This document shows, piece by piece, positions 35,615-46,284 of a stretch of 64,000 nt of DNA. The notes beneath the pieces were generated by a model. It made no database searches. It saw nothing but the letters and a program-made list of their open reading frames with translations, and was not told the origin of the DNA. Source of the DNA: a virus; IMG/VR virus record IMGVR_UViG_2585428088_000002, positions 395 to 64,394 of that record, one strand, 5' to 3'. The position numbers and the translations under genes were made by a program. The stretch's first letter is position 1. Every line of letters begins with the position of its first letter.

Positions 35615-36220
35615 ATGCAAGCTTTTCATGAAGTGCAGTTTCCACCCGATATCTCCTATGGCGTAACTGGCGGTCCGGAGTATTCTACCGATGTTGTCAT
35701 GACCGGTTCAGGCTATGAGCAGCGCAATATCAACTGGTCCCAGGCAAAATGTAAGTACCAAGCCGCGCATGGTGTTAAAAATGAAAACCAGATGAGAAGG
35801 CTGCTCGCCTTCTTCCGTGCGCGGCGCGGCAAAGCGTATGGCTTTCGCTTTAAGGATTGGCTTGACTTTACGGGAAGCAGAGAAATGATCGGTGTCGGCG
35901 ATGGAAAAACGATAACCTTTCAACTAATAAAAACCTACATTGATGATGCCGGCTATACAGAGGTAAGAAAAATCCGAAAGCCAGTGACAGGGACGGTCAG
36001 GGTATATCTGGATGGTGCTGAACAGACCGACGGATGGTCGGTAAATTACACGACCGGGATTGTCACCTTTACCGCGGCGCCAGCCGCAGAGGTTATTATC
36101 ACTGCGGATTATGAGTTTGATGTGCCTGTCCGCTTTGACACTGATCATTGCCCGCTATCCATTAAGGAATGGGACATTTATAGCTGGGACAATATTCCGC
36201 TGGTTGAAATACGAGTATAG
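35615..36220 (+). CDS. DUF2460 / TIGR02217-type distal tail protein (RcGTA-like)
   Basis: FHEV.FP..ISYG..GGPE..T.V....SG.EQRN..W, FF.AR.G..YGFRFKDW.D, FDVPVRFDTD. Confidence 0.9.
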   Translation: MQAFHEVQFPPDISYGVTGGPEYSTDVVMTGSGYEQRNINWSQAKCKYQAAHGVKNENQMRRLLAFFRARRGKAYGFRFKDWLDFTGSREMIGVGDGKTITFQLIKTYIDDAGYTEVRKIRKPVTGTVRVYLDGAEQTDGWSVNYTTGIVTFTAAPAAEVIITADYEFDVPVRFDTDHCPLSIKEWDIYSWDNIPLVEIRV

Positions 36221-36229
36221 GAGAGATTT

Positions 36230-36601
36230 ATGACAACGGCAGCTTCTGTCATACACATCTATAATGGCTCAGTAACGCTTGGCGGCACGGATGGGGATTT
36301 GGTTACTGAAACAGCAGTTGGCGGCAATCGGATACTACTCGAATTAAATCGCGGTGCAGAATCGAATGTTGTTCCCTTAGCTGCTCGGGCTACCACTGCC
36401 GCCTGTTATCTTGTTCAGATTGTCTCAGACAATGGTAGGATACTGCTGTCGATAGATAGTGTTCACTGGGTAAAATCGATTTTTCTTCTAACTGTGGGAA
36501 CGAATAATAGCTTGTTTTATATAAAAAGCATTGCAGATCAAGACGAAGATTATGGCAATACCGTATGGAGCTTAAAAGTAGATTATTATGCTCCAGTGTA
36601 A
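36230..36601 (+). CDS. Small tail-associated protein, paralog 1
   Basis: IHIYNG..T.GGTDG.L motif shared with the next two ORFs. Confidence 0.6.
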   Translation: MTTAASVIHIYNGSVTLGGTDGDLVTETAVGGNRILLELNRGAESNVVPLAARATTAACYLVQIVSDNGRILLSIDSVHWVKSIFLLTVGTNNSLFYIKSIADQDEDYGNTVWSLKVDYYAPV

Positions 36602-36614
36602 GAAAGGAGATTTT

Positions 36615-37007
36615 ATGGGATTGCATTTTTATGTTGGCGGTACAACCGGTGCTCAAAATGGGACGCTTTTATCTGACGGCGATATGACCAACCCCTTAAT
36701 CTTTGATGGAATGTATCCGGCAGCAGGAGTTACAGTTTCCAAGTCACGCAGCATTCATATTCGGGCCGATACCGGAGAGACTTGGCATTGGGTGCAAGTG
36801 CAGGTACGCGGAGCATACTCCGCTAATTATGGCCTGACATCAAATGTTGGTGCGAATGACGGATATCATTCTTCAATCGGTTGTTTATTACTTGCTACAG
36901 TTACCGATGTCAACCAACCTATTACCGTTTCGGGTTCTTGTTCGGGCAGCGACACGAACTCGCCGGATGTGACCTCTAAACTGGTGGCGTGGGGGTGGAA
37001 AGTCTAA
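36615..37007 (+). CDS. Small tail-associated protein, paralog 2
   Basis: LHFYVGGTTGAQNGTLL N-terminal motif; AAGGAG RBS. Confidence 0.6.
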   Translation: MGLHFYVGGTTGAQNGTLLSDGDMTNPLIFDGMYPAAGVTVSKSRSIHIRADTGETWHWVQVQVRGAYSANYGLTSNVGANDGYHSSIGCLLLATVTDVNQPITVSGSCSGSDTNSPDVTSKLVAWGWKV

Positions 37008-37441
37008 TGGCACATTTAAACGTATATGTGAATGGAACTCCCGGAGGCACAGACGGCATACTTGCAACAACAGATACGCTCATTGCGGACGGAATTATGT
37101 TTCCCAGCAACTTCGGCTCAACTGGCTTTACTGTTATTCCGTTGTGCCTGAGGTGCGATGCGGGTTTCAACGCCCAATCTGTAAAGATTACAACTCCTGC
37201 TCCGCAGTTTTTTTGTATTCTTCGCGGTACAACAACCAATACCGACATATTTACTTCCGCAGCGTCCATGTATTCCAATACAGGTTGGACTGCCAATTCA
37301 TTTACGAATGGCAGTTTTTATAGCGGAATTACTGTTGGTAATACGAATGTTGCCTTTTTGGTGCTTGCAAGCGGCAACTCAACTCTGACAACAGGCATAA
37401 CTGATTTCTTCACTTTATCCTTTATTGAAGTTGCTGTTTAG
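37007..37441 (+). CDS. Small tail-associated protein, paralog 3
   Basis: LNVYVNGTPGGTDGIL N-terminal motif; start overlaps previous stop. Confidence 0.6.
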   Translation: MAHLNVYVNGTPGGTDGILATTDTLIADGIMFPSNFGSTGFTVIPLCLRCDAGFNAQSVKITTPAPQFFCILRGTTTNTDIFTSAASMYSNTGWTANSFTNGSFYSGITVGNTNVAFLVLASGNSTLTTGITDFFTLSFIEVAV

Positions 37442-37459
37442 TATTGGCGGTGAAATGCT

Positions 37460-38749
37460 TTGGCTACGACATTAACTATTAGCGGGCGGCGTAATATAAA
37501 CACGAATACGCAGACGGAATATCAACACGACCTGAAAAGGGTTTGGATTACTGGTGGCGTTGCAGTTCGGGGAACTAGAAATATTAATATGCAGGTATCA
37601 AGCTTCTATGTCTCTGACTTAAAACGCAACTGGCTGTCTGGCGGTTTATCGGTTAAAGGCACCCGTTTTATCAATACTCAAACGCAGACTGCGTATATTC
37701 ATGATCTCAAACGGAGTTGGCTTCCAGGCGGACTTAGAGTCATAGGTACCAGAAATATTAACTCAAGTGCATTGCCGTCATATGTCGCAGATCTATTTCG
37801 CATTAAGAATGTGACTCTGGAACAATTTTCTAGCGTAATGTATTTACTTCGGAGGATTCTGCAACCCCCGGGAATACCGTGGATGCAAACCGATGTGACT
37901 ACTATTGCCTGGTGTTGGAATTTAACGTTGCAAGATGGTGCCGTCATGGGATTTACTAACCATGACAGAGATCTTGTCATCAATAACATAACCTACGAGG
38001 CAAGCAGCGGCTTTGAGCCAACCGCTGTGGATACGACAAATGATATGGCAACCGATAATCTTGACGTAACTGGCATGCTCGACAGCGAACGTATTAAAAC
38101 GACCGATATCTCAAACGGACGTTTTGACTTCGCCGAAGTCGAGATTTTTTTATGTAACTGGGCAAAGGTGACCGATCCTGTGCTGATTTTGAGACGGGGT
38201 ACCATTGGCCGTATTTCGCACGGGAAAAACGGTTTTCAGGCCGAAGTTCGCGGTTTGCTGGAAGCTTTTCAACAAGCAGCGGGATTAGCGTACCAAAAAC
38301 AATGCCGGGCACAGTTTGGCGACAGTCAATGCGGTTTGAATAAAGCAGCCTACACTTTTACAGGTTCGGTAACTTCAATCTCCCAGGATGGTTCTTTTTC
38401 AACCAATCTCACGCAAGAAGATGACTATTTTAGTTATGGCGTAATTCGTTTTGACCGAACCGGTGAAGAAATGGAAGTTAAAAAATATAGCCAAACCGGC
38501 GGCGGTATTTCACTATTCTTGCCGGTCTCAGATATTGCAGTAGGAGACACGTTTTCTGTTTCCGCGGGGTGTGACGGGAATTTTTCTACTTGTAAAACAA
38601 GGTTCAGCAACGTTTTTAATTTTCGGGGAGAGCCATTCATTCCTGGTAATGACTTAATGGCATCCTATCCCGGAAAGCAAGACTCAGCAACTGTTCCGGA
38701 AAGTCAGGCGAATAATCCAGAGAATTTGAGGTGGGGAGGAAGTGGATAG
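37460..38749 (+). CDS. DUF2163 / TIGR02218-type tail hub protein with N-terminal repeat extension
   Basis: VTTIAWCW.L...DG...GFT.HDRDL, G.FD.AEV, C.A.FGD..CG, GCDG..STC..RFSN..NFRGEP.IPG. Confidence 0.88.
   Translation: MATTLTISGRRNINTNTQTEYQHDLKRVWITGGVAVRGTRNINMQVSSFYVSDLKRNWLSGGLSVKGTRFINTQTQTAYIHDLKRSWLPGGLRVIGTRNINSSALPSYVADLFRIKNVTLEQFSSVMYLLRRILQPPGIPWMQTDVTTIAWCWNLTLQDGAVMGFTNHDRDLVINNITYEASSGFEPTAVDTTNDMATDNLDVTGMLDSERIKTTDISNGRFDFAEVEIFLCNWAKVTDPVLILRRGTIGRISHGKNGFQAEVRGLLEAFQQAAGLAYQKQCRAQFGDSQCGLNKAAYTFTGSVTSISQDGSFSTNLTQEDDYFSYGVIRFDRTGEEMEVKKYSQTGGGISLFLPVSDIAVGDTFSVSAGCDGNFSTCKTRFSNVFNFRGEPFIPGNDLMASYPGKQDSATVPESQANNPENLRWGGSG
37484..37801 (+). repeat. Tandem 87-bp (29-aa) repeats, about 3.7 copies
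   Basis: G(T/R)RxIN......Y..DLKR.W..GG.xV units starting at 37484, 37571, 37658, 37745. Confidence 0.85.
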
Positions 38750-38751
38750 AG

Positions 38752-39183
38752 ATGAAACGACAAGACATTGTTATAGAAGCAAAAAAATGGTTGGGGACGA
38801 AATGGCAGCATCAGGCCAGCTTAAAGCAAGTTGCCTGTGATTGTGTCGGCCTAGTGCGCGGTGTATATTGCGAGCTTACAGGGATAGACGTCGATATTGA
38901 TATTGATTATCCCGCTACCTGGCACTTATTCAAAAAAGAAGAACGCCTGTATGCTGAAGCGAAAAGACACATGGTGGAAATCAGAAAGGACGAAGCCAGG
39001 CCGGGAGATGTGCTTGTTTTTGGGTTTTATGATCATCCGGCTAGCCATGTTGGCATATTGACTTCCCCTGATACCTTTATTCATAGCTATCAGGATATTG
39101 GACAAGTCATTGAAACCCGCTTGGACGATGCTTGGAAAAAGCGGCTGCGTTTTGCTTTCTCCTATCCTGGAGTTCTAGGCTGA
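38752..39183 (+). CDS. NlpC/P60 tail-associated peptidase (TIGR02219-like)
   Basis: A..WLGT.W.HQ.S....ACDCVGLVRGV, HVGI...FIHSY. Confidence 0.9.
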   Translation: MKRQDIVIEAKKWLGTKWQHQASLKQVACDCVGLVRGVYCELTGIDVDIDIDYPATWHLFKKEERLYAEAKRHMVEIRKDEARPGDVLVFGFYDHPASHVGILTSPDTFIHSYQDIGQVIETRLDDAWKKRLRFAFSYPGVLG

Positions 39184-41393
39184 TGGCTACCTTGCTTTTA
39201 GCAACCATTCCTGCCAATGCCTTTTGGAGCGCTGCTTTAACAATGCTGGGCGGCTATATTGACAGTAAACTCTTTGGCCCCCACGTTACGCAGGAAGTCG
39301 GCAAAATGAGTGATTTGCAGATGCAGACTGCTTCCTACGGCGCACCAATTCCTCTGATTCTTGGGACCTGCCGCTCGACAGGCAATGTAATATGGTCTAC
39401 CAAATTTGTGGAGCATACAAAAACAGAAAAACAAGGCGGTAAGGGCGGCGGAGGCGGCGTAACAACAACTACGTATTCTTATACTGTCAGTTTTGCTGTG
39501 GGTATTTGCCAGGGGCCAATAACTGCGATCGGACGCGTTTGGGCTGATGGTAAATTGGTTGACTTGGCAAAGTATCAGCATACTGTCTACCTTGGCGGCG
39601 ATACGCAAACTCCAGACAGCTGGATGGAAGCGGTAGAAGGTGCGGGAAATGTTCCTGCCTTCCGTGGGTTAGCTTATATTGTCTTTAAAGATCTTGCCAT
39701 TGGCGATTTCGGCAACCGTATACCGTCATTCAGTTTTGAAGTAACCAGGCAGATCGATAATGTAAAAGCTTTGGTGGAAACAGTCTCGCTTAGTGCGGGA
39801 CTACAATATACCGATGTTGATGCATCAGACCTTGAGGGACTTGCTATAACTGGAATCTCTTCTGCGGGAGACCAGACCCGTAGGAGTATCATTGAACAAC
39901 TGCAGGCCGTATTTCTCTTTGATTCCATTGAGCGTAGCGGCAAGATTGTTTTTAAACGGAGAAATGCAAATACTGCCTATGAAATACCGGATGAATATTT
40001 AGGAGCTTATGAAACATCTCCTCCTAATGAGCCATATAACCTGCAATACAAAGATGAACGTGAGCTGCCGCGCAGACTAACCATTAACTATTTGTCCAAA
40101 GACAAGGACTATCAGCAGGGAACAATGTCAGCCTATAGGCAAATTACGCAGAGTAAAAATGAGCAGACAGTAAGTGTTCAAATGGTTCTGGCAGATACCG
40201 ATGCTAAAGAACTTGCTGAAGTACGGTTGTTTGAAGAGTGGCAGAATAGAAAAACATTGTCCCTGACACTTTCCAATCAATTTGGCTGGTTACTGCCGGG
40301 TGATATAGTAAAAGTTCCAATTCAGGAACAAAAGCAAAATTTCATGATTACCAAAACAACGTATGGAAAGCCTGGGTTAATAAAAATTGAGGCGGTAGCT
40401 ACCACCCAACAAGTATACACCTCTGTTGGCAGAGTGGTGGATTCTGAAACAAATCCCTCGATTCCCCCTGCTCCGGGGAATGTGTCCATATCCTTATTCG
40501 ATTTGCCTCTTCTTCCCGGCGAAACGTCTGCTGAGCGGATGTTCGCAGCTTGCACCTCAGACGGCGCCTTCTATGGCGCTAACCTATTTCGATCCAATGA
40601 TGGCGGCGGAACATGGAGCTATGTTGGGCAAGTGACACAGAATGCTGTTGTTGGGACAACCATAACCGTCCTACCGCCTGGCAACAGTGTTACATGGGAT
40701 GAAGCGTCTACTGTAGACGTTACACTTAGCCATGGGACGTTGGAGAGCCGCCCCGCTGGGGATGTGTTAAATTATTTCAATGCTGCGTTAATTGGTGCGG
40801 AGATTGTGCAGTTTAAGCAGGCTTCTCTAATTGCCGCTAATACCTACCGGTTGTCAGGCTTATTGCGCGGCAGGCTGGGCACGGAACATGAAGTCGGCTG
40901 TCATATTGCCAATGAACCGTTTCTTATGCTCAATTCGCTGCAGTCGATTTCTTTTCCGGCATCAGAGTGGCACATGGACAAACTTTATCGGATAGGACCG
41001 TCTACCTTGCCGATAACTGATGAGAAATATCGAGACTATACGGTTAACCTGAATGGGCTTGGGGCAAGGCCCTATTCGGTTTGCCATGTTAGTGGTTTTA
41101 GAGATGGGACGGGTTCTTTAACAGTTTCATGGGTTCGCCGCGCAAGAATGAATGGCGATTGGAAGCCATACACGGATGTGCCGGTGGGTGAGAATAGTGA
41201 GACGTATCAGGTGGATGTAGTTTCAGCGGATGGGAACATCAAAAGAACCATAACCGTAAACGAGCCTAAAGCCGTGTATTCAGCCAACGAGCAAATCGCC
41301 GATTTTGGCAGTTTACAAGCAGTGGTGCGCGTACGGATTTATCAGATGTCTGAAGTGTATGGCCGGGGAGCCGTAAAGGAGGAGGTTTTATGA
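39183..41393 (+). CDS. Tail tip / host specificity protein (GTA/gpJ-like)
   Basis: ASYG.PIP...G..R..GNVIW, SFAVG.C.GP, RVWADGK, PAFRG.AY.VF..L..FGNR.P, LLRG.LGTE. Confidence 0.88.
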   Translation: MATLLLATIPANAFWSAALTMLGGYIDSKLFGPHVTQEVGKMSDLQMQTASYGAPIPLILGTCRSTGNVIWSTKFVEHTKTEKQGGKGGGGGVTTTTYSYTVSFAVGICQGPITAIGRVWADGKLVDLAKYQHTVYLGGDTQTPDSWMEAVEGAGNVPAFRGLAYIVFKDLAIGDFGNRIPSFSFEVTRQIDNVKALVETVSLSAGLQYTDVDASDLEGLAITGISSAGDQTRRSIIEQLQAVFLFDSIERSGKIVFKRRNANTAYEIPDEYLGAYETSPPNEPYNLQYKDERELPRRLTINYLSKDKDYQQGTMSAYRQITQSKNEQTVSVQMVLADTDAKELAEVRLFEEWQNRKTLSLTLSNQFGWLLPGDIVKVPIQEQKQNFMITKTTYGKPGLIKIEAVATTQQVYTSVGRVVDSETNPSIPPAPGNVSISLFDLPLLPGETSAERMFAACTSDGAFYGANLFRSNDGGGTWSYVGQVTQNAVVGTTITVLPPGNSVTWDEASTVDVTLSHGTLESRPAGDVLNYFNAALIGAEIVQFKQASLIAANTYRLSGLLRGRLGTEHEVGCHIANEPFLMLNSLQSISFPASEWHMDKLYRIGPSTLPITDEKYRDYTVNLNGLGARPYSVCHVSGFRDGTGSLTVSWVRRARMNGDWKPYTDVPVGENSETYQVDVVSADGNIKRTITVNEPKAVYSANEQIADFGSLQAVVRVRIYQMSEVYGRGAVKEEVL

Positions 41394-41728
41394 GTGCAAA
41401 TAACACGCCAAGACTGGGGCTGCCCTATATCATCGCCAGTCAAGCGCAAAAGGAAGTAACCCATAATGATGCGCTGAATCTCATTGATTTACTGGTGCAG
41501 CCGGTGATAAAAGGCAGAACGAATATTCCGCCGACGTCGCCAGCCGAGAGTGATGCATATATTGTGACCACAACCGCCACTGGCGCATGGATAGGGAAAG
41601 AAAATCAAATCGCATGGTTTATCGGCGGCGCTTGGCGCTTTATTGCTCCATTTGAGGGTATGTGGTTTTGGTCGGCTGTTGATGCAAGAGATTATGTTTA
41701 TCATGGTAATGCCTGGATGGCTAAATAG
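41390..41728 (+). CDS. DUF2793 domain protein
   Basis: TPRLGLPYI..SQAQKEVTHN.AL..ID.LVQ, G.W. Confidence 0.88.
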   Translation: MSANNTPRLGLPYIIASQAQKEVTHNDALNLIDLLVQPVIKGRTNIPPTSPAESDAYIVTTTATGAWIGKENQIAWFIGGAWRFIAPFEGMWFWSAVDARDYVYHGNAWMAK

Positions 41729-41798
41729 TGTTTAGTAGGAAGGTTGCTTATTAAATTGATCGGAAAAGTTTTATGTTTGATGTAAAGGAGGATGAGAA

Positions 41799-42230
41799 AT
41801 GATTGAGTACACACAAATAGAGCTGCGCATCATGGCCTTGTTTTCAGCCATAGGCGCAGCTTTTTCCTTTCTTGTCGGCGGTGTGGACAAGCTGGTTACG
41901 GCACTTCTTATTTTTGTTGTGATTGATTATGTGACCGGGCTGATCGCCGCGTGGAAGACGGCAACGCTGGACAGCAAAAAAGGCTTTGAAGGGATAAAGC
42001 GCAAGGTCGTTATGCTGCTGATCGTCATCATGGCCCATTGGATCGATGCCAGCATTTTTGGCATCAGCACCTGCCGGTCCATGGTGATCTTCGCGTATCT
42101 GGGCAATGAAGGCTTGAGCATTATTGAGAACTTGGACCGCATGGGGTATGGCGAGTATATTCCCGCATTTATTCGGGAGAAGCTGGTGCAGCTAAGAAGT
42201 GAAAAGAAGTCTTTCCGAAAAGAACCATAG
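41799..42230 (+). CDS. Phage holin (Phage_holin_4 / toxin-secretion type)
   Basis: Hydrophobic segments; DYVTG..AA...LDS..GF.GI.RK, NEGLSIIEN. Confidence 0.88.
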   Translation: MIEYTQIELRIMALFSAIGAAFSFLVGGVDKLVTALLIFVVIDYVTGLIAAWKTATLDSKKGFEGIKRKVVMLLIVIMAHWIDASIFGISTCRSMVIFAYLGNEGLSIIENLDRMGYGEYIPAFIREKLVQLRSEKKSFRKEP

Positions 42231-42312
42231 CGGCCGATTGATTTTGCTTTCTGCATAAAATGGCGCTAAAAATATGCAGCAAGGGCGTGGGTAATAGAGT
42301 GAACGAAAGGGG

Positions 42313-42906
42313 ATGCTGAATATGAAAGTGGTAATCGACCCTGGCCATGCGGGCCGAAATATTGACCCTGGTGCGGTAAATGGATCAACGGGCCTGCAGG
42401 AGGCGGATGTTGCGCTGGTGATTTCGCGGCAAGTAGCAAACTATCTGCTTAATGTAGGGTATGAGGTGAAACTAACCCGAACCGAATGGGAACAAGAAGA
42501 AACGGATGATCTAAGCTATCGGACAGCACTGGCGAATGACTGGGGCGCCGATATTTTTATTTCTCTTCATTGCAATAGCGCAGCGAACGAGAGCGCTGAA
42601 GGCTATGAGGTCTGGACATCTCCAGGACAGACGGAAGGGGACAGGCTGGCGACGTGCATATACAAGCAAATTGCTGCTGAGTTTCCCGATCGGGCAGGGA
42701 GAACGGATTACTCTGACGGTGATCCCGATAAGGAGTCGCGCTTCTATGTATTGGTCTATACCGACGCTCCTGCCTGCTTGGTGGAAATGGCGTTTATTTC
42801 AAATGATGAGGAAGCGGCCTTGTTGGCAAACGCCGCGTGGTGGGACCGGTATGCGAGGGCAATTGCGCGGGGAGTGACGGATTACACGATGATGCTGGAG
42901 GGATGA
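42313..42906 (+). CDS. N-acetylmuramoyl-L-alanine amidase endolysin (Amidase_3), catalytic domain only
   Basis: IDPGH, E, ANDWGADIFISLHCN, LVEMAFISN. Confidence 0.92.
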   Translation: MLNMKVVIDPGHAGRNIDPGAVNGSTGLQEADVALVISRQVANYLLNVGYEVKLTRTEWEQEETDDLSYRTALANDWGADIFISLHCNSAANESAEGYEVWTSPGQTEGDRLATCIYKQIAAEFPDRAGRTDYSDGDPDKESRFYVLVYTDAPACLVEMAFISNDEEAALLANAAWWDRYARAIARGVTDYTMMLEG

Positions 42907-42909
42907 GGT

Positions 42910-43539
42910 ATGATCCAGGTACTTCAAACTTGGAAAGCTGTCTTTAAGCAAAACAAGTGGCTGATAATGCTCGTTGTTTTCTTCCTATTAATAAGCGCAA
43001 TGCTTTTCTGGCTTTGGCAGCGTTCCCAGCAGGCCGAGGAAAAGTACCGGCAGGCTGTGGTGCTGCAGCAGGAGCAACTAGAGCAGGTTCAGGAGCTTGG
43101 CAAAGCGCTTCATATCTCACAGATGAACGCTAAGGAACTGCAGGCGGCTTATGACGAACTGAAAACTAAGCCGCCTGTTGCCAGTTTTACCGTAAAAGCG
43201 CCTTCTCTGGAGGCTGCGGCTGAGCAGGTTGCGGAGAGGATCAATAAACAGGATGCGACTTTGCCGCCCGCCGCGCTGGAAAAGACCGACCGGACGGCTG
43301 TGGTCAAAAACGATACGGACTATAAAGTGGACGTACTGAAGATTAATCTGGACAAATCTTGGGAACTTTCCGCAGGAGTAGGAAGCCACTGCGGTGATGC
43401 CTATATTCCGCTTGGGGTGCAGCGAAACTATGCTTCGCATAAGGCTGTGGCGGCGGAAGTGCATCTGGTGCCGGAAGAACTAGCGAGGGGAAAAATAAAG
43501 ACCTCCGGTTGGGAGGTCAAGCATGTTTGGCGCTATTAA
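42910..43539 (+). CDS. Membrane-anchored coiled-coil protein with beta-rich C-terminus; candidate spanin
   Basis: TM residues ~17-36, Q/E-rich helix, then alternating beta-strand pattern ending KHVWRY; last gene of lysis cassette. Confidence 0.55.
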   Translation: MIQVLQTWKAVFKQNKWLIMLVVFFLLISAMLFWLWQRSQQAEEKYRQAVVLQQEQLEQVQELGKALHISQMNAKELQAAYDELKTKPPVASFTVKAPSLEAAAEQVAERINKQDATLPPAALEKTDRTAVVKNDTDYKVDVLKINLDKSWELSAGVGSHCGDAYIPLGVQRNYASHKAVAAEVHLVPEELARGKIKTSGWEVKHVWRY

Positions 43540-43574
43540 GGCGGCGGATACTACGCAAAGAAAATCTAAGATAC

Positions 43575-43613
43575 AGGTCGGGCAGATAGCAATTTGTCCG
43601 GCCTATATTTTTT
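43575..43613 (+). terminator. Terminator after lysis cassette
   Basis: AGGTCGGGCAGA...TTTGTCCGGCCT followed by T-rich tract. Confidence 0.5.
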
Positions 43614-43669
43614 AATGTTTTCTGTTTGGATTGACTGATTATTTGACCTGGTAGAAACAGTTGCAATGC

Positions 43670-43722
43670 TTGACTTACAAGGCTTTTAGAGTGATATATG
43701 GTACTACCAAAAAGGAAAGGAG
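43670..43722 (+). promoter_or_regulatory. Repeated promoter-like motif, copy C, upstream of recombinase
   Basis: TTGACTTACAAGGCTTTTAGAGTGATATATGGTACTACC..AAAGGAGG. Confidence 0.6.
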
Positions 43723-43730
43723 GTCGCATT

Positions 43731-45014
43731 ATGCGAGTGAAAATTGTTACACCAAAATCAGAGTTGTTGGAAGTTAAAAAGCTTAAGGTATGTGCGTATG
43801 CCCGTGTATCATCGGATAGCTTGAAACAGGAAGATTCTCTTGAGAACCAGACTTCCACATATGAAAGGCTGATTTCATCCAACCCTGATTATGAGTTCGC
43901 GGGGGTGTATGCGGATCAAGGCATTTCAGGTTATTGTGAGAACCGCCCTGCATTCCAGTCGATGCTTGAAAAAGCAAAGAACCATGAGATAGATTTGATT
44001 ATAACTAAGTCGGTTTCCCGTTTCGCTCGAAACACAGTCACTGTATTAAAGGTGGCAAGAGAACTGAAGGAACTTGGAATCGGGATTTTCTTTGAAGAAC
44101 AGAATATCAATACTTTATCAGGGGACGGTGAGATGATGCTTGCCGTCCTCGCTTCTTTTGCTCAGGAAGAATCTAGAAGCATGAGCGAGAACAATAAATG
44201 GACAATGAAGAAAAAATTTGAGCGTGGTGAAATTATGGTGAATACCACCCGCTTCATGGGATATGACAAAAATGAATTCGGAGAGCTGGTCATAAACCGT
44301 GAACAGGCTAAGATTGTCCGCAGGATTTTTGATATGTATCTCAGTGGAATAGGGATGTTCCGAATTGCAGCTCTATTAAATGATGAGAACGTACCGACTA
44401 TTACAGGCGGGAAGTGGTATGAAGGAACGATCAGAGGAATGCTCAAGAATGAAAAATACAAAGGTGATTGTATTCTTCAAAAGTATTACACCCCCGAAAA
44501 CCGAAGGAATACAAGCGTTAGGAACAACGGTGAAGTCCAGAGTTATTATATTGAAGAAAACCATCCGGCTATTGTCAGCAAGGCAGAATGGGATAAGGTG
44601 CAGCAGATTATGCAAAGACACAAGGAACAGCGGAAAATTGCTGCGGATGGTACGGATAAGTACAAAAACCGCTACCCACTTTCGGGTATTCTCATCTGCC
44701 CTTATTGCGGTAAGGCATTAAGGCGAAAACAGGTATACAACAAGAGAATAGAATGGTGGTGTTCCACATATATTCACGATGGAAAAACTGCCTGCAAGGG
44801 CGTTAAAATATCGGACGAGGAAGCATCAAAACAGAATATCACAGAGCCTACTGTGGTTGAGGAGGTAAAAATAAATGGCGAGAAATATTACAGTTATACC
44901 AGTAAGGAAGAATTCGACAGGGGTATCAGAAATAAACCAAGCGACCGCCCAAATAAAGATGGCGGCATACTGCCGCGTATCCACAGACCAAGAAGAACAG
45001 CTATCAAGCTATGA
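43731..45014 (+). CDS. Large serine recombinase 1
   Basis: CAYARVSS catalytic Ser, YADQGISG, IITKSVSRFARN, recombinase domain, C-terminal CPYCG zinc ribbon. Confidence 0.93.
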   Translation: MRVKIVTPKSELLEVKKLKVCAYARVSSDSLKQEDSLENQTSTYERLISSNPDYEFAGVYADQGISGYCENRPAFQSMLEKAKNHEIDLIITKSVSRFARNTVTVLKVARELKELGIGIFFEEQNINTLSGDGEMMLAVLASFAQEESRSMSENNKWTMKKKFERGEIMVNTTRFMGYDKNEFGELVINREQAKIVRRIFDMYLSGIGMFRIAALLNDENVPTITGGKWYEGTIRGMLKNEKYKGDCILQKYYTPENRRNTSVRNNGEVQSYYIEENHPAIVSKAEWDKVQQIMQRHKEQRKIAADGTDKYKNRYPLSGILICPYCGKALRRKQVYNKRIEWWCSTYIHDGKTACKGVKISDEEASKQNITEPTVVEEVKINGEKYYSYTSKEEFDRGIRNKPSDRPNKDGGILPRIHRPRRTAIKL

Positions 45015-46284
45015 GAATCAGGTGAATTACTACAAATCCTACATTCAGCAAAATCCTATGTACGAGTTTGCTGGCATATATGCAGATGAAGGAATTTCTG
45101 GTACGAATACGAAAAAGCGTGAGGAGTTTAATCGCATGATAGCTGATTGCAGAGCTAGGAAAATTGACCGTATCATCACAAAATCCATCAGCCGCTTTGC
45201 GAGAAATACACTCGATTGCCTGAACTATGTGCGTGAATTAAAGGAGCTTGGCATTGGCGTCATATTTGAAAAAGAAAACATAGATACTCTAGATGCAAAG
45301 GGAGAGGTGCTTCTTACGATATTGAGTTCCTTGGCTCAGGATGAATCAAGGTCGATCTCAGAGAACTCCACATGGGGTATTCGCCGACGATATGAAAGCG
45401 GAAAATTTGGTATGAGCACAAAGCGTTTTCTTGGTTACGACGCCGATGAGAATGGTCAACTAGTGGTAAACCCAGAACAGGCAAAAATCGTGGTAAGACT
45501 TTATGATGAGTATCTTTCGGGTAAAACAGTGGATTATATCAAGCGTACTTTTGAACGGGAGGGTATAAAAAACTGGAACAGAAAAACCGTGTGGCAAGCC
45601 ACGACCCTGCAGAGCATGCTCTGTAACGAAAAGTACAAAGGCGATGCTATTTTGCAAAAAAGCTATACGGTAGATTTTCTAAGCAAGAAACGTGCAAAGA
45701 ACCAAGGGGAAATTCAACAGTTTCATATTGAAGATAACCATGAGGCCATCATAGACCCTTTGATTTGGGAAGCAGTACAGCTTGAACAGGAGCGCAGAAG
45801 AAAATATATTGAAGAACACGGTACAAATTCATATTCTCACAAACCAGAAACAAATCCCTTTGCTGGCAAGATAGTCTGCGGAACTTGTAACCAATCTTAT
45901 GCAAGGAAAGGCTGGAAAACAGGAGATGTATACCGTAAGGTTTGGCAATGCCAGGAACGATACAAAGTCAAAGGCGTATCAGGCTGCACGAATCGCCATA
46001 TTGATGAAGAGGTACTTGAAGAGGCATTTAAGATGGCTTGGAACTTGTTGCTTAAAAATAGAGAGGAGACAAAAAAACGATGGCAGTGTTTTGCTGAATT
46101 TGGCAATCCCTTAGAGCAGTACAGAGCAGTGCAGTTTGCGGATATTACGGAGAATGCCAAGTACATCACGGATTTTGATACGGATTTCATGCTGAATACT
46201 TTGGACCACATCGCCGTTTTTGAAAGCGGGAAACTGGTTGTTGCTTTTATGGACGGGACAGAGATCGAATGTGGCGGCGAATAA
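44875..46284 (+). CDS. Large serine recombinase 2
   Basis: AAYCRVST, YADEGISG, KSISRFARN, CGTC...WQC zinc ribbon; overlaps recombinase 1 by 140 bp. Confidence 0.93.
   Translation: MARNITVIPVRKNSTGVSEINQATAQIKMAAYCRVSTDQEEQLSSYENQVNYYKSYIQQNPMYEFAGIYADEGISGTNTKKREEFNRMIADCRARKIDRIITKSISRFARNTLDCLNYVRELKELGIGVIFEKENIDTLDAKGEVLLTILSSLAQDESRSISENSTWGIRRRYESGKFGMSTKRFLGYDADENGQLVVNPEQAKIVVRLYDEYLSGKTVDYIKRTFEREGIKNWNRKTVWQATTLQSMLCNEKYKGDAILQKSYTVDFLSKKRAKNQGEIQQFHIEDNHEAIIDPLIWEAVQLEQERRRKYIEEHGTNSYSHKPETNPFAGKIVCGTCNQSYARKGWKTGDVYRKVWQCQERYKVKGVSGCTNRHIDEEVLEEAFKMAWNLLLKNREETKKRWQCFAEFGNPLEQYRAVQFADITENAKYITDFDTDFMLNTLDHIAVFESGKLVVAFMDGTEIECGGE

Follow-up and report, generated by a model that had tools for sequence, protein, structure and literature searches.

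The gene under study closes the lysis cassette of a prophage, which lies within a window of 64,000 nucleotides, the whole stretch of viral DNA analysed here. Reading 5′ to 3′, the cassette consists of a holin gene, the gene for an Amidase_3 endolysin and the candidate gene, at the tightly packed end of the prophage late region (Table 1). The earlier note on this DNA had placed the gene last in a lysis cassette, and the open reading frame does stand behind a PF05105 holin gene and an endolysin gene. It had also described the amidase as devoid of a cell-wall-binding domain; this is borne out, as the Amidase_3 domain spans residues 6–189 of the 197 in the enzyme. Only 3 nt separate the stop codon of the endolysin gene from the start codon of the candidate gene, no promoter-like site was found between these two genes, and a strong intrinsic terminator follows 36 nt 3′ of the candidate gene. 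As shown by this gene layout, the candidate gene is predicted to be co-transcribed with the holin and endolysin genes. The two serine recombinase genes at the prophage border overlap each other by 140 nt, and a recombinase pair is also found behind the lysis cassette in Anaeroselena agilis.

Table 1. Features of the locus, segments of the candidate protein and intervening proteins of related cassettes. Positions are those of the window unless a locus label precedes them.
Feature	Position	Strand	Size, matches or basis
Holin gene, opens the lysis cassette	41799..42230	+	143 aa; Pfam PF05105 Phage_holin_4_1, E 3e-35; phrog_199 holin
Endolysin gene, N-acetylmuramoyl-L-alanine amidase	42313..42906	+	197 aa; Pfam PF01520 Amidase_3, E 1e-43; phrog_435 endolysin
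Candidate gene	42910..43539	+	209 aa plus stop; confirmed ORF
Residues 17–37, N-terminal hydrophobic helix	42958..43020	+	Kyte-Doolittle maximum 2.7
Residues 38–127, predicted periplasmic region of short helices	43021..43290	+	AlphaFold2, conservation
Residues 128–145, conserved beta-hairpin (RTxV ... VxVYKIN)	43291..43344	+	AlphaFold2, covariation
Residues 150–209, four amphipathic beta-strands, terminal aromatic	43357..43536	+	AlphaFold2, covariation, alternating faces
Intrinsic terminator, ends the late/lysis operon	43575..43604	+	13-bp stem with 6 GC pairs, then T run
Large serine recombinase genes, tandem, prophage border	43698-45014 and 44875-46284		Resolvase + Recombinase + Zn_ribbon_recom
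Intervening tail-anchored proteins	L043:5666-5941, L044:5717-5992, L045:5590-5919, L057:1168-1536, L028:5449-5952		
Intervening tail-anchored proteins	L029:6649-7152, L025:6544-7143	-	

The last gene before the border recombinases occupies a place typical of morons. It might accordingly encode an envelope protein for lysogenic conversion or superinfection exclusion, comparable to lambda bor and lom, with no role in lysis. Against this reading stand the lack of a promoter of its own and the terminator after the gene, and the gene neighbourhoods of homologs bear on it further. These were compared for 74 family genes, at loci of the host and its relatives and at loci retrieved by scanning 185,579 species genomes; neighbouring open reading frames were called and clustered, and the cluster representatives were scanned for domains. 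The family gene lies directly downstream of an Amidase_3 endolysin at 21 loci, of a Glyco_hydro_25 (GH25) endolysin at nine, of a VgrG3-like C-terminal lysozyme (PF21277) at eight and of an Amidase_2 endolysin at seven. The gap to the upstream gene is usually −35 to +24 nt. Multi-pass holin-like genes, of the PF05105 type or others, are found upstream of the family genes, and Anaeroselena agilis has the order holin, amidase, family gene and recombinase that is seen at the candidate locus. As the upstream endolysins are of four unrelated types, the family appears to be linked to lysis and to no particular enzyme, and the linkage of homologs to holin and endolysin genes, which the earlier note had left to be checked, is thus found across the family. 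A constant endolysin partner is expected of a lysis-cassette component and counts against a border moron. In many of the 74 loci the gene starts next to the endolysin stop or overlaps it (in one metagenomic phage contig the family gene overlaps an Amidase_2 gene), and its place behind the four endolysin families is kept at loci away from a prophage border as well. A conversion or exclusion protein is, on these grounds, very improbable.

Two further features of these cassettes may be recorded. In Veillonella the endolysin slot is filled by a stand-alone lysozyme domain resembling that of the T6SS protein VgrG3 (PF21277, E 8e-39; L047:5313-5972 and seven other loci). In seven Negativicutes cassettes the endolysin gene and the family gene are separated by a gene for a tail-anchored protein of 91–199 amino acids, which begins with an acidic coiled coil, ends in a transmembrane helix and gives no significant match to Pfam or PHROG. 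This protein resembles XhlA-like lysis accessories.

The candidate protein belongs to phrog_10797, a family of unknown function (E 5.3e-73, residues 2–201 aligned to profile positions 3–194 of 194). The candidate itself belongs to no Pfam family, and among 89 diverse members of the family no credible Pfam match was found. Weak matches to T2SSM, DUF4381 and others are confined to the hydrophobic helix and the low-complexity helices and were set aside as compositional. A single-query search yields 482 family proteins at 90% clustering, the family forms 189 clusters at 50% identity, and a subfamily profile collects 2,932 proteins at E below 1e-5. The plan shared by these proteins consists of an N-terminal hydrophobic helix, a variable helical part, the motif LPxxAxEKTDRTxV...VxVYKINL and a four-strand tail. 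Five copies are present in the host genome in different prophage regions (two on contig C12 and one each on C14, C55 and C63). They are 31–87% identical to each other, and one of them is 87% identical to the candidate; five copies imply at least five prophages or remnants with such a lysis cassette in this host. A tblastn search of 50,697 deposited phage genomes, with the candidate and a Veillonella-type member as queries, gave no match. One Veillonella contig (L083) carries two family genes about 700 nt apart (8-418 and 1094-1540), both of them short (136 and 148 aa).

Residues 17–37 form the sole strongly hydrophobic 19-residue window in the protein, in agreement with the single N-terminal transmembrane helix described in the earlier note, and they are preceded by lysines at positions 9, 13 and 16. 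Judged from sequence, this segment would be an uncleaved signal anchor of the inner membrane with N-in/C-out topology. Across the family the apolar run has a median length of 18.5 residues and a net charge of +2 ahead of it, often finishes in aromatics and shows no conserved small-x-small site. These are more anchor-like properties, and they weigh against a second reading of the protein, namely, that the N-terminal helix is cleaved or released and that the mature product is a small oligomeric outer-membrane barrel. Such a product would weaken the outer membrane by forming a pore or blocking BamA; it would be a disruptor that does no bridging, and hence not a spanin. What speaks for processing is an apolar run shorter than 18 residues in 37% of family members and, in the candidate itself, an I-S-A motif at residues 28–30 that is a possible signal peptidase site.

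The AlphaFold2 monomer, built on an alignment of 89 sequences, is compact and confidently predicted (pLDDT 95.5, pTM 0.80). A long N-terminal helix (residues 16–47) comprises the anchor and residues 38–47, and it is followed by short helices at 54–67, 71–84 and 100–112. The helical region ends at residue 127 in a conserved LPxxAxEKTD motif, whose D127 is 99% conserved. Then come the two strands of a hairpin (128–134 and 139–145) and the four strands of the tail (151–160, 163–175, 178–186 and 198–207). ESM models of relatives agree with this monomer, and the C-terminal 90 residues folded alone display the same strands (pLDDT 92.5). The Q/E-rich stalk proposed earlier is therefore helical, but it is modelled as several short helices and not as a single long coiled coil; in the model the periplasmic part looks short and seemingly globular. 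The four amphipathic strand segments picked out earlier match the four tail strands, to which the models add the hairpin. The final residue is an aromatic, Tyr, as had been stated. There is likewise no lipobox cysteine, the only cysteine (C161) being located in a turn and not conserved.

A compact and confident monomer, reproduced in relatives, suits a third reading as well. The protein might be an inner-membrane-anchored periplasmic lysis accessory that never enters the outer membrane, with a C-terminal sheet that belongs to a soluble alpha/beta domain. It could, for instance, be i-spanin-like, with a partner in the host outer membrane or wall such as OmpM, or it could regulate or scaffold the holin or endolysin. 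The weak similarity of the helix and anchor to an Rz-like PHROG (phrog_13, E 0.015) is in keeping with this, and the linkage to lysis genes fits such an accessory equally well. What bears most on this reading is the C-terminal domain.

With sequence weighting, the last residue of family members is W in 51%, F in 43% and Y in 1%, so that W or F closes about 94–95% of the proteins; by comparison, 5 of the 64 long open reading frames in the window end in an aromatic residue. Positions 203, 205, 207 and 209 of the last strand are hydrophobic or aromatic in 76–99% of members, and the strand thus has the alternating hydrophobics and terminal F, W or Y of a beta-signal. All four strands alternate in this manner. 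One face (153, 155, 157 and 159; the even positions from 164 to 174; 180 to 186; 203 to 209) is 70–100% hydrophobic or aromatic, and the other is polar or glycine. It is the polar/glycine face that holds the most conserved residues, i.e., G156 (98%), G200 (91%), Y165 (91%), H185 (76%) and Q171 (74%).

Covariation was analysed by mean-field direct coupling over 419 family sequences, a sample of modest effective size (Neff 160). The three hairpin ladders are recovered, with i+j of about 323 for strands 1 and 2, 350 for strands 2 and 3 and 385 for strands 3 and 4. Recovered as well is an antiparallel ladder between strand 1 and strand 4, with i+j of 358–360 and the pairs S154-V206, E152-V206, W151-Y209, G158-E202, G158-G200 and H160-G200. 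It scores 8.9, compared with 9.0–12.1 for the hairpins and a maximum of 5.0 among 2,096 control blocks outside the beta-domain. The ladder is seen in each of the two main subfamilies on its own (Neff 56 and 75) and is therefore not a clade artefact. A pairing of strand 1 with strand 4 is cyclic, and as a barrel of four strands is impossible in one chain, the pairing points to contacts between chains. A closed six-strand monomeric barrel that includes the hairpin was considered and rejected; the ladders that it calls for, between the hairpin and strands 1 and 4, score 1.6 and 3.5, within the range of the controls.

The polar face carries the strongest couplings, some of which join strands two apart, and this fits a concave lumen with the hydrophobic face outside. 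A polar inside and a hydrophobic outside is the arrangement of outer-membrane barrels, unlike that of soluble barrels. The hairpin couples through N134-D141, N134-Q171, N134-V206, N134-R208 and D137-R208; covariation thus places the hairpin tip against residues that face the lumen, at the periplasmic end of the proposed barrel. The helices and the anchor hardly covary with the strands. It is proposed that residues 150–209 are the protomer of an oligomeric outer-membrane barrel, and the alternation of faces, the terminal aromatic and the strand 1–strand 4 ladder are all consistent with the view in the earlier note that the C-terminus behaves like a barrel segment and not like a soluble domain.

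A periplasmic accessory would leave the near-universal W/F terminus and the strand 1–strand 4 ladder unexplained. It would also leave unexplained that the conserved and covarying face is the polar one while the other is 70–100% hydrophobic, and the near absence of covariation of the helices or anchor with the strands counts against it too. This reading is considered unlikely. The processed barrel draws on the same evidence for barrel closure and a beta-signal, and it has no difficulty with a short periplasmic region, but it leaves the conserved stretch of about 110 residues between the helix and the barrel without a role; it is thought rather improbable.

Comparison of folds gave scores that stay below significance. 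In a Foldseek search with the C-terminal domain, the top entry is the Hia anchor 2gr8 (probability 0.98, TM 0.47/0.52, rmsd 4.1 Å over 66 columns), and the list further includes Hia 2gr7 and 3emo and YadA 2lme, at E values of 0.6 to 1.1 that are not significant; no E value to Hia or YadA fell below 0.1 with either the C-terminal domain or the full-length models. A VIA-align search of 48,161 chains places the AtaA anchor 9vnj at Z 5.2, a score that is tied with unrelated sheets and does not discriminate; single long helices and generic four-strand sheets share the best scores, of about Z 5. Searching PDB sequences with a profile returned nothing meaningful, and hhalign against the YadA anchor of the host gave a probability of 1.8%, not significant. 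Feature and shape searches of the ESM Atlas led only to unnamed viral clusters, which are the phrog_10797 family itself.

The C-terminal domain thus resembles the protomer of trimeric-autotransporter anchors and is not a member of that family. As in the YadA, Hia and AtaA anchors (PF03895), each chain has four long antiparallel strands and a terminal aromatic, the periplasmic turns are short, and strand 1 pairs with strand 4 of the neighbouring chain, which in the present case is implied by covariation. In contrast to those anchors, there is no significant sequence or profile similarity, with no YadA_anchor match in the 89 members, and neither an exported passenger nor a pore-threading helix. 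The N-terminus is a predicted inner-membrane helix that is signal-anchor-like, where trimeric anchors have a cleaved signal peptide, and the stretch of about 110 residues ahead of the strands does not look like a passenger.

The host carries an Omp85/BamA gene (176 bits) in a region that also encodes LpxC, and a YadA-type anchor is found too, so that the diderm host assumed in the earlier note is confirmed. The two Omp85 proteins of the host end in F. No LolA match was found in the host genome, at 99% completeness, and there is no match in it to the Rz family PF03245. In agreement with this, LolA and LolB are reported to be absent from all Negativicutes genomes (PMC5007114). No route is thus known by which a lipoprotein, whether an o-spanin or a u-spanin, could reach the outer membrane in these bacteria. 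The only YadA_anchor match in the host (L102:2-598) extends about 55 residues beyond the last anchor strand (…WRVGRPHHP…) on a contig that is cut at the 5′ end; not to end at the beta-signal is unusual for trimeric autotransporters.

The family was also sought in all bacteria and archaea, with one genome per species (185,579 species genomes), by motif and tblastn, in a scan that covers the KVDVYKI subfamily only. This yielded 51 motif-confirmed loci, all of them in Negativicutes (Veillonella, Selenomonas, other Selenomonadaceae, Centipeda, Megasphaera, Anaeroglobus, Acidaminococcus and Anaerovibrio) except for three contigs on two MAGs labelled Lachnospiraceae and Streptococcus (L078, L072 and L077). 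The exceptions match Acidaminococcus loci at 79–92% identity and a Veillonella fallax locus at 95%, and are therefore read as mis-binned phage or prophage contigs in public MAGs. In a profile search, the beta-domain was detected in 66 of 301 Negativicutes genomes, representing 33 of 93 genera. No match covering the beta-domain was found in 798 genomes of two other Firmicutes classes, those of the two MAGs (by inference, Clostridia and Bacilli); these genomes gave only weak matches, of 29 bits or less, limited to the anchor and the helical part. With the mis-binned contigs aside, a restriction to phages of Negativicutes, as anticipated earlier, is what both searches show.

From these data, a mode of action can be outlined. 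The gene would be transcribed together with the holin and endolysin genes, and the N-terminal signal anchor would enter the inner membrane N-in and C-out. The last 60 or so residues, with the aromatic beta-signal, would be handed to BamA, and the modules of neighbouring copies would close a barrel that is polar in its lumen and hydrophobic on the side facing the lipids, a closure that the covariation supports. A barrel of three copies and 12 strands, as in autotransporter anchors, is a guess. About 110 periplasmic residues would then pass through the cell wall and tie both membranes together. After the holin has fired and the wall has been cleared by the amidase, the tethers may cluster and collapse, so that, in analogy to spanins, the outer membrane is fused or torn and lysis is completed. 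Such a design would suit Negativicutes, which are without LolA and LolB.

The candidate may accordingly be a spanin analogue of phages of diderm Firmicutes with a different outer-membrane anchor, a reading for which the balance is about even. Of the inverted single-chain spanin first suggested, the diderm host, the linkage to lysis and the barrel-like C-terminus have stood; the coiled-coil stalk has not. In the model, the periplasmic part looks too short and globular to bridge a wide periplasm unless it unfolds, and this, together with the compact monomer, keeps the periplasmic accessory and the processed barrel alive as alternatives. More tentative is the broader hypothesis of a third class of spanins, in which an N-terminal inner-membrane helix is joined to a BamA-assembled oligomeric barrel of four-strand modules, and which would have evolved as Negativicutes cannot send lipoproteins to the outer membrane; this falls somewhat short of an even chance.

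Several known systems share parts of this design. With the lambda i-spanin Rz the candidate has in common an N-terminal type II anchor, a helical periplasmic region and the slot after the endolysin. It gives no PF03245 (Rz) match, and similarity to the Rz-like phrog_13, mentioned above, and phrog_4297 (E 0.064) is weak and limited to the anchor and helix. Where Rz has two long coiled-coil helices in its periplasmic domain, AlphaFold2 models four short helices and then beta-structure in the candidate. Unlike Rz/Rz1, there is no o-spanin gene embedded, overlapping or nearby, and no lipobox open reading frame in any frame of positions 36000-44000; the counterpart of the Rz1 lipoprotein is the C-terminal beta module. 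Bridges of the TamB/AsmA and TonB/TolA types similarly have an N-terminal inner-membrane anchor and a C-terminus that engages the outer membrane or an Omp85 protein, and the C-terminus of TamB is beta-signal-like. Those are host housekeeping proteins, however, which differ in size and fold, are not lytic and have no barrel of their own. We know of no polypeptide with both an inner-membrane helix and a BAM-assembled barrel.

Another parallel is with the u-spanin gp11 of phage T1, a single chain for which a hold on both membranes has been proposed (Kongari et al., 2018; PMC6139136). Both genes are last in their lysis cassettes and follow varied endolysin types, and the two proteins, similar in size, are both rich in beta-structure in their periplasmic or C-terminal part. 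Their sequences show no similarity, and the topology is inverted. The transmembrane helix is C-terminal in gp11 and N-terminal in the candidate, whose C-terminus is an amphipathic beta-strand in place of the u-spanin helix, and instead of a lipobox and three acyl chains the candidate has the proposed oligomeric beta-barrel made by BamA. That an outer-membrane protein might act as an o-spanin was raised merely as a possibility in the 2018 spanin survey (PMC6139136). A third lysis step without canonical spanins is also known from the disruptin phiKT gp28, a small cationic amphipathic peptide (bioRxiv 10.1101/515445), and from the mycobacteriophage esterase LysB (PMC5707550), but neither has a membrane anchor plus a beta module. 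In the literature, no description was found of a spanin or outer-membrane lysis factor of phages of Negativicutes or diderm Firmicutes, nor of a barrel spanin.

Veillonella, Selenomonas, Megasphaera, Acidaminococcus and Sporomusa-type bacteria are diderm Firmicutes of the gut, mouth and rumen, and how their phages open the outer membrane was not found described in the literature. The family is a concrete, testable and widespread candidate for this step, with over 2,900 proteins and a presence in a fifth of the Negativicutes genomes sampled. If the reading as a barrel-anchored spanin is true, disruption of the outer membrane can rest on BAM-assembled barrels instead of lipoproteins, and the lysis design of a phage would be tied to the envelope biogenesis of its host, in this case to the absence of Lol. 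The protein would then be the first known that is an integral component of the inner and the outer membrane of a diderm cell simultaneously. It would also serve as a marker by which lysis cassettes, and diderm hosts, are recognised in the annotation of metagenomic phage contigs, and offer a minimal four-strand self-assembling BAM substrate for studies of barrel assembly in Terrabacteria.

Two chimeric proteins, P0391 (L103:6001-7263) and P0190 (L016:2006-3373), carry the C-terminal 120 or so residues of the family behind unrelated N-termini. They are the only fused forms found, and in both the beta-domain lacks an N-terminal export signal, which speaks against the spanin reading. The P0391 gene adjoins IS, ABC-F and LinB-like resistance genes (six contigs), and in P0190 the beta-domain follows a CBM96 domain. 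A second architecture of the family was considered for the pair and rejected in favour of junction scars; the two fusions are probably marks of recombination at former prophage borders.
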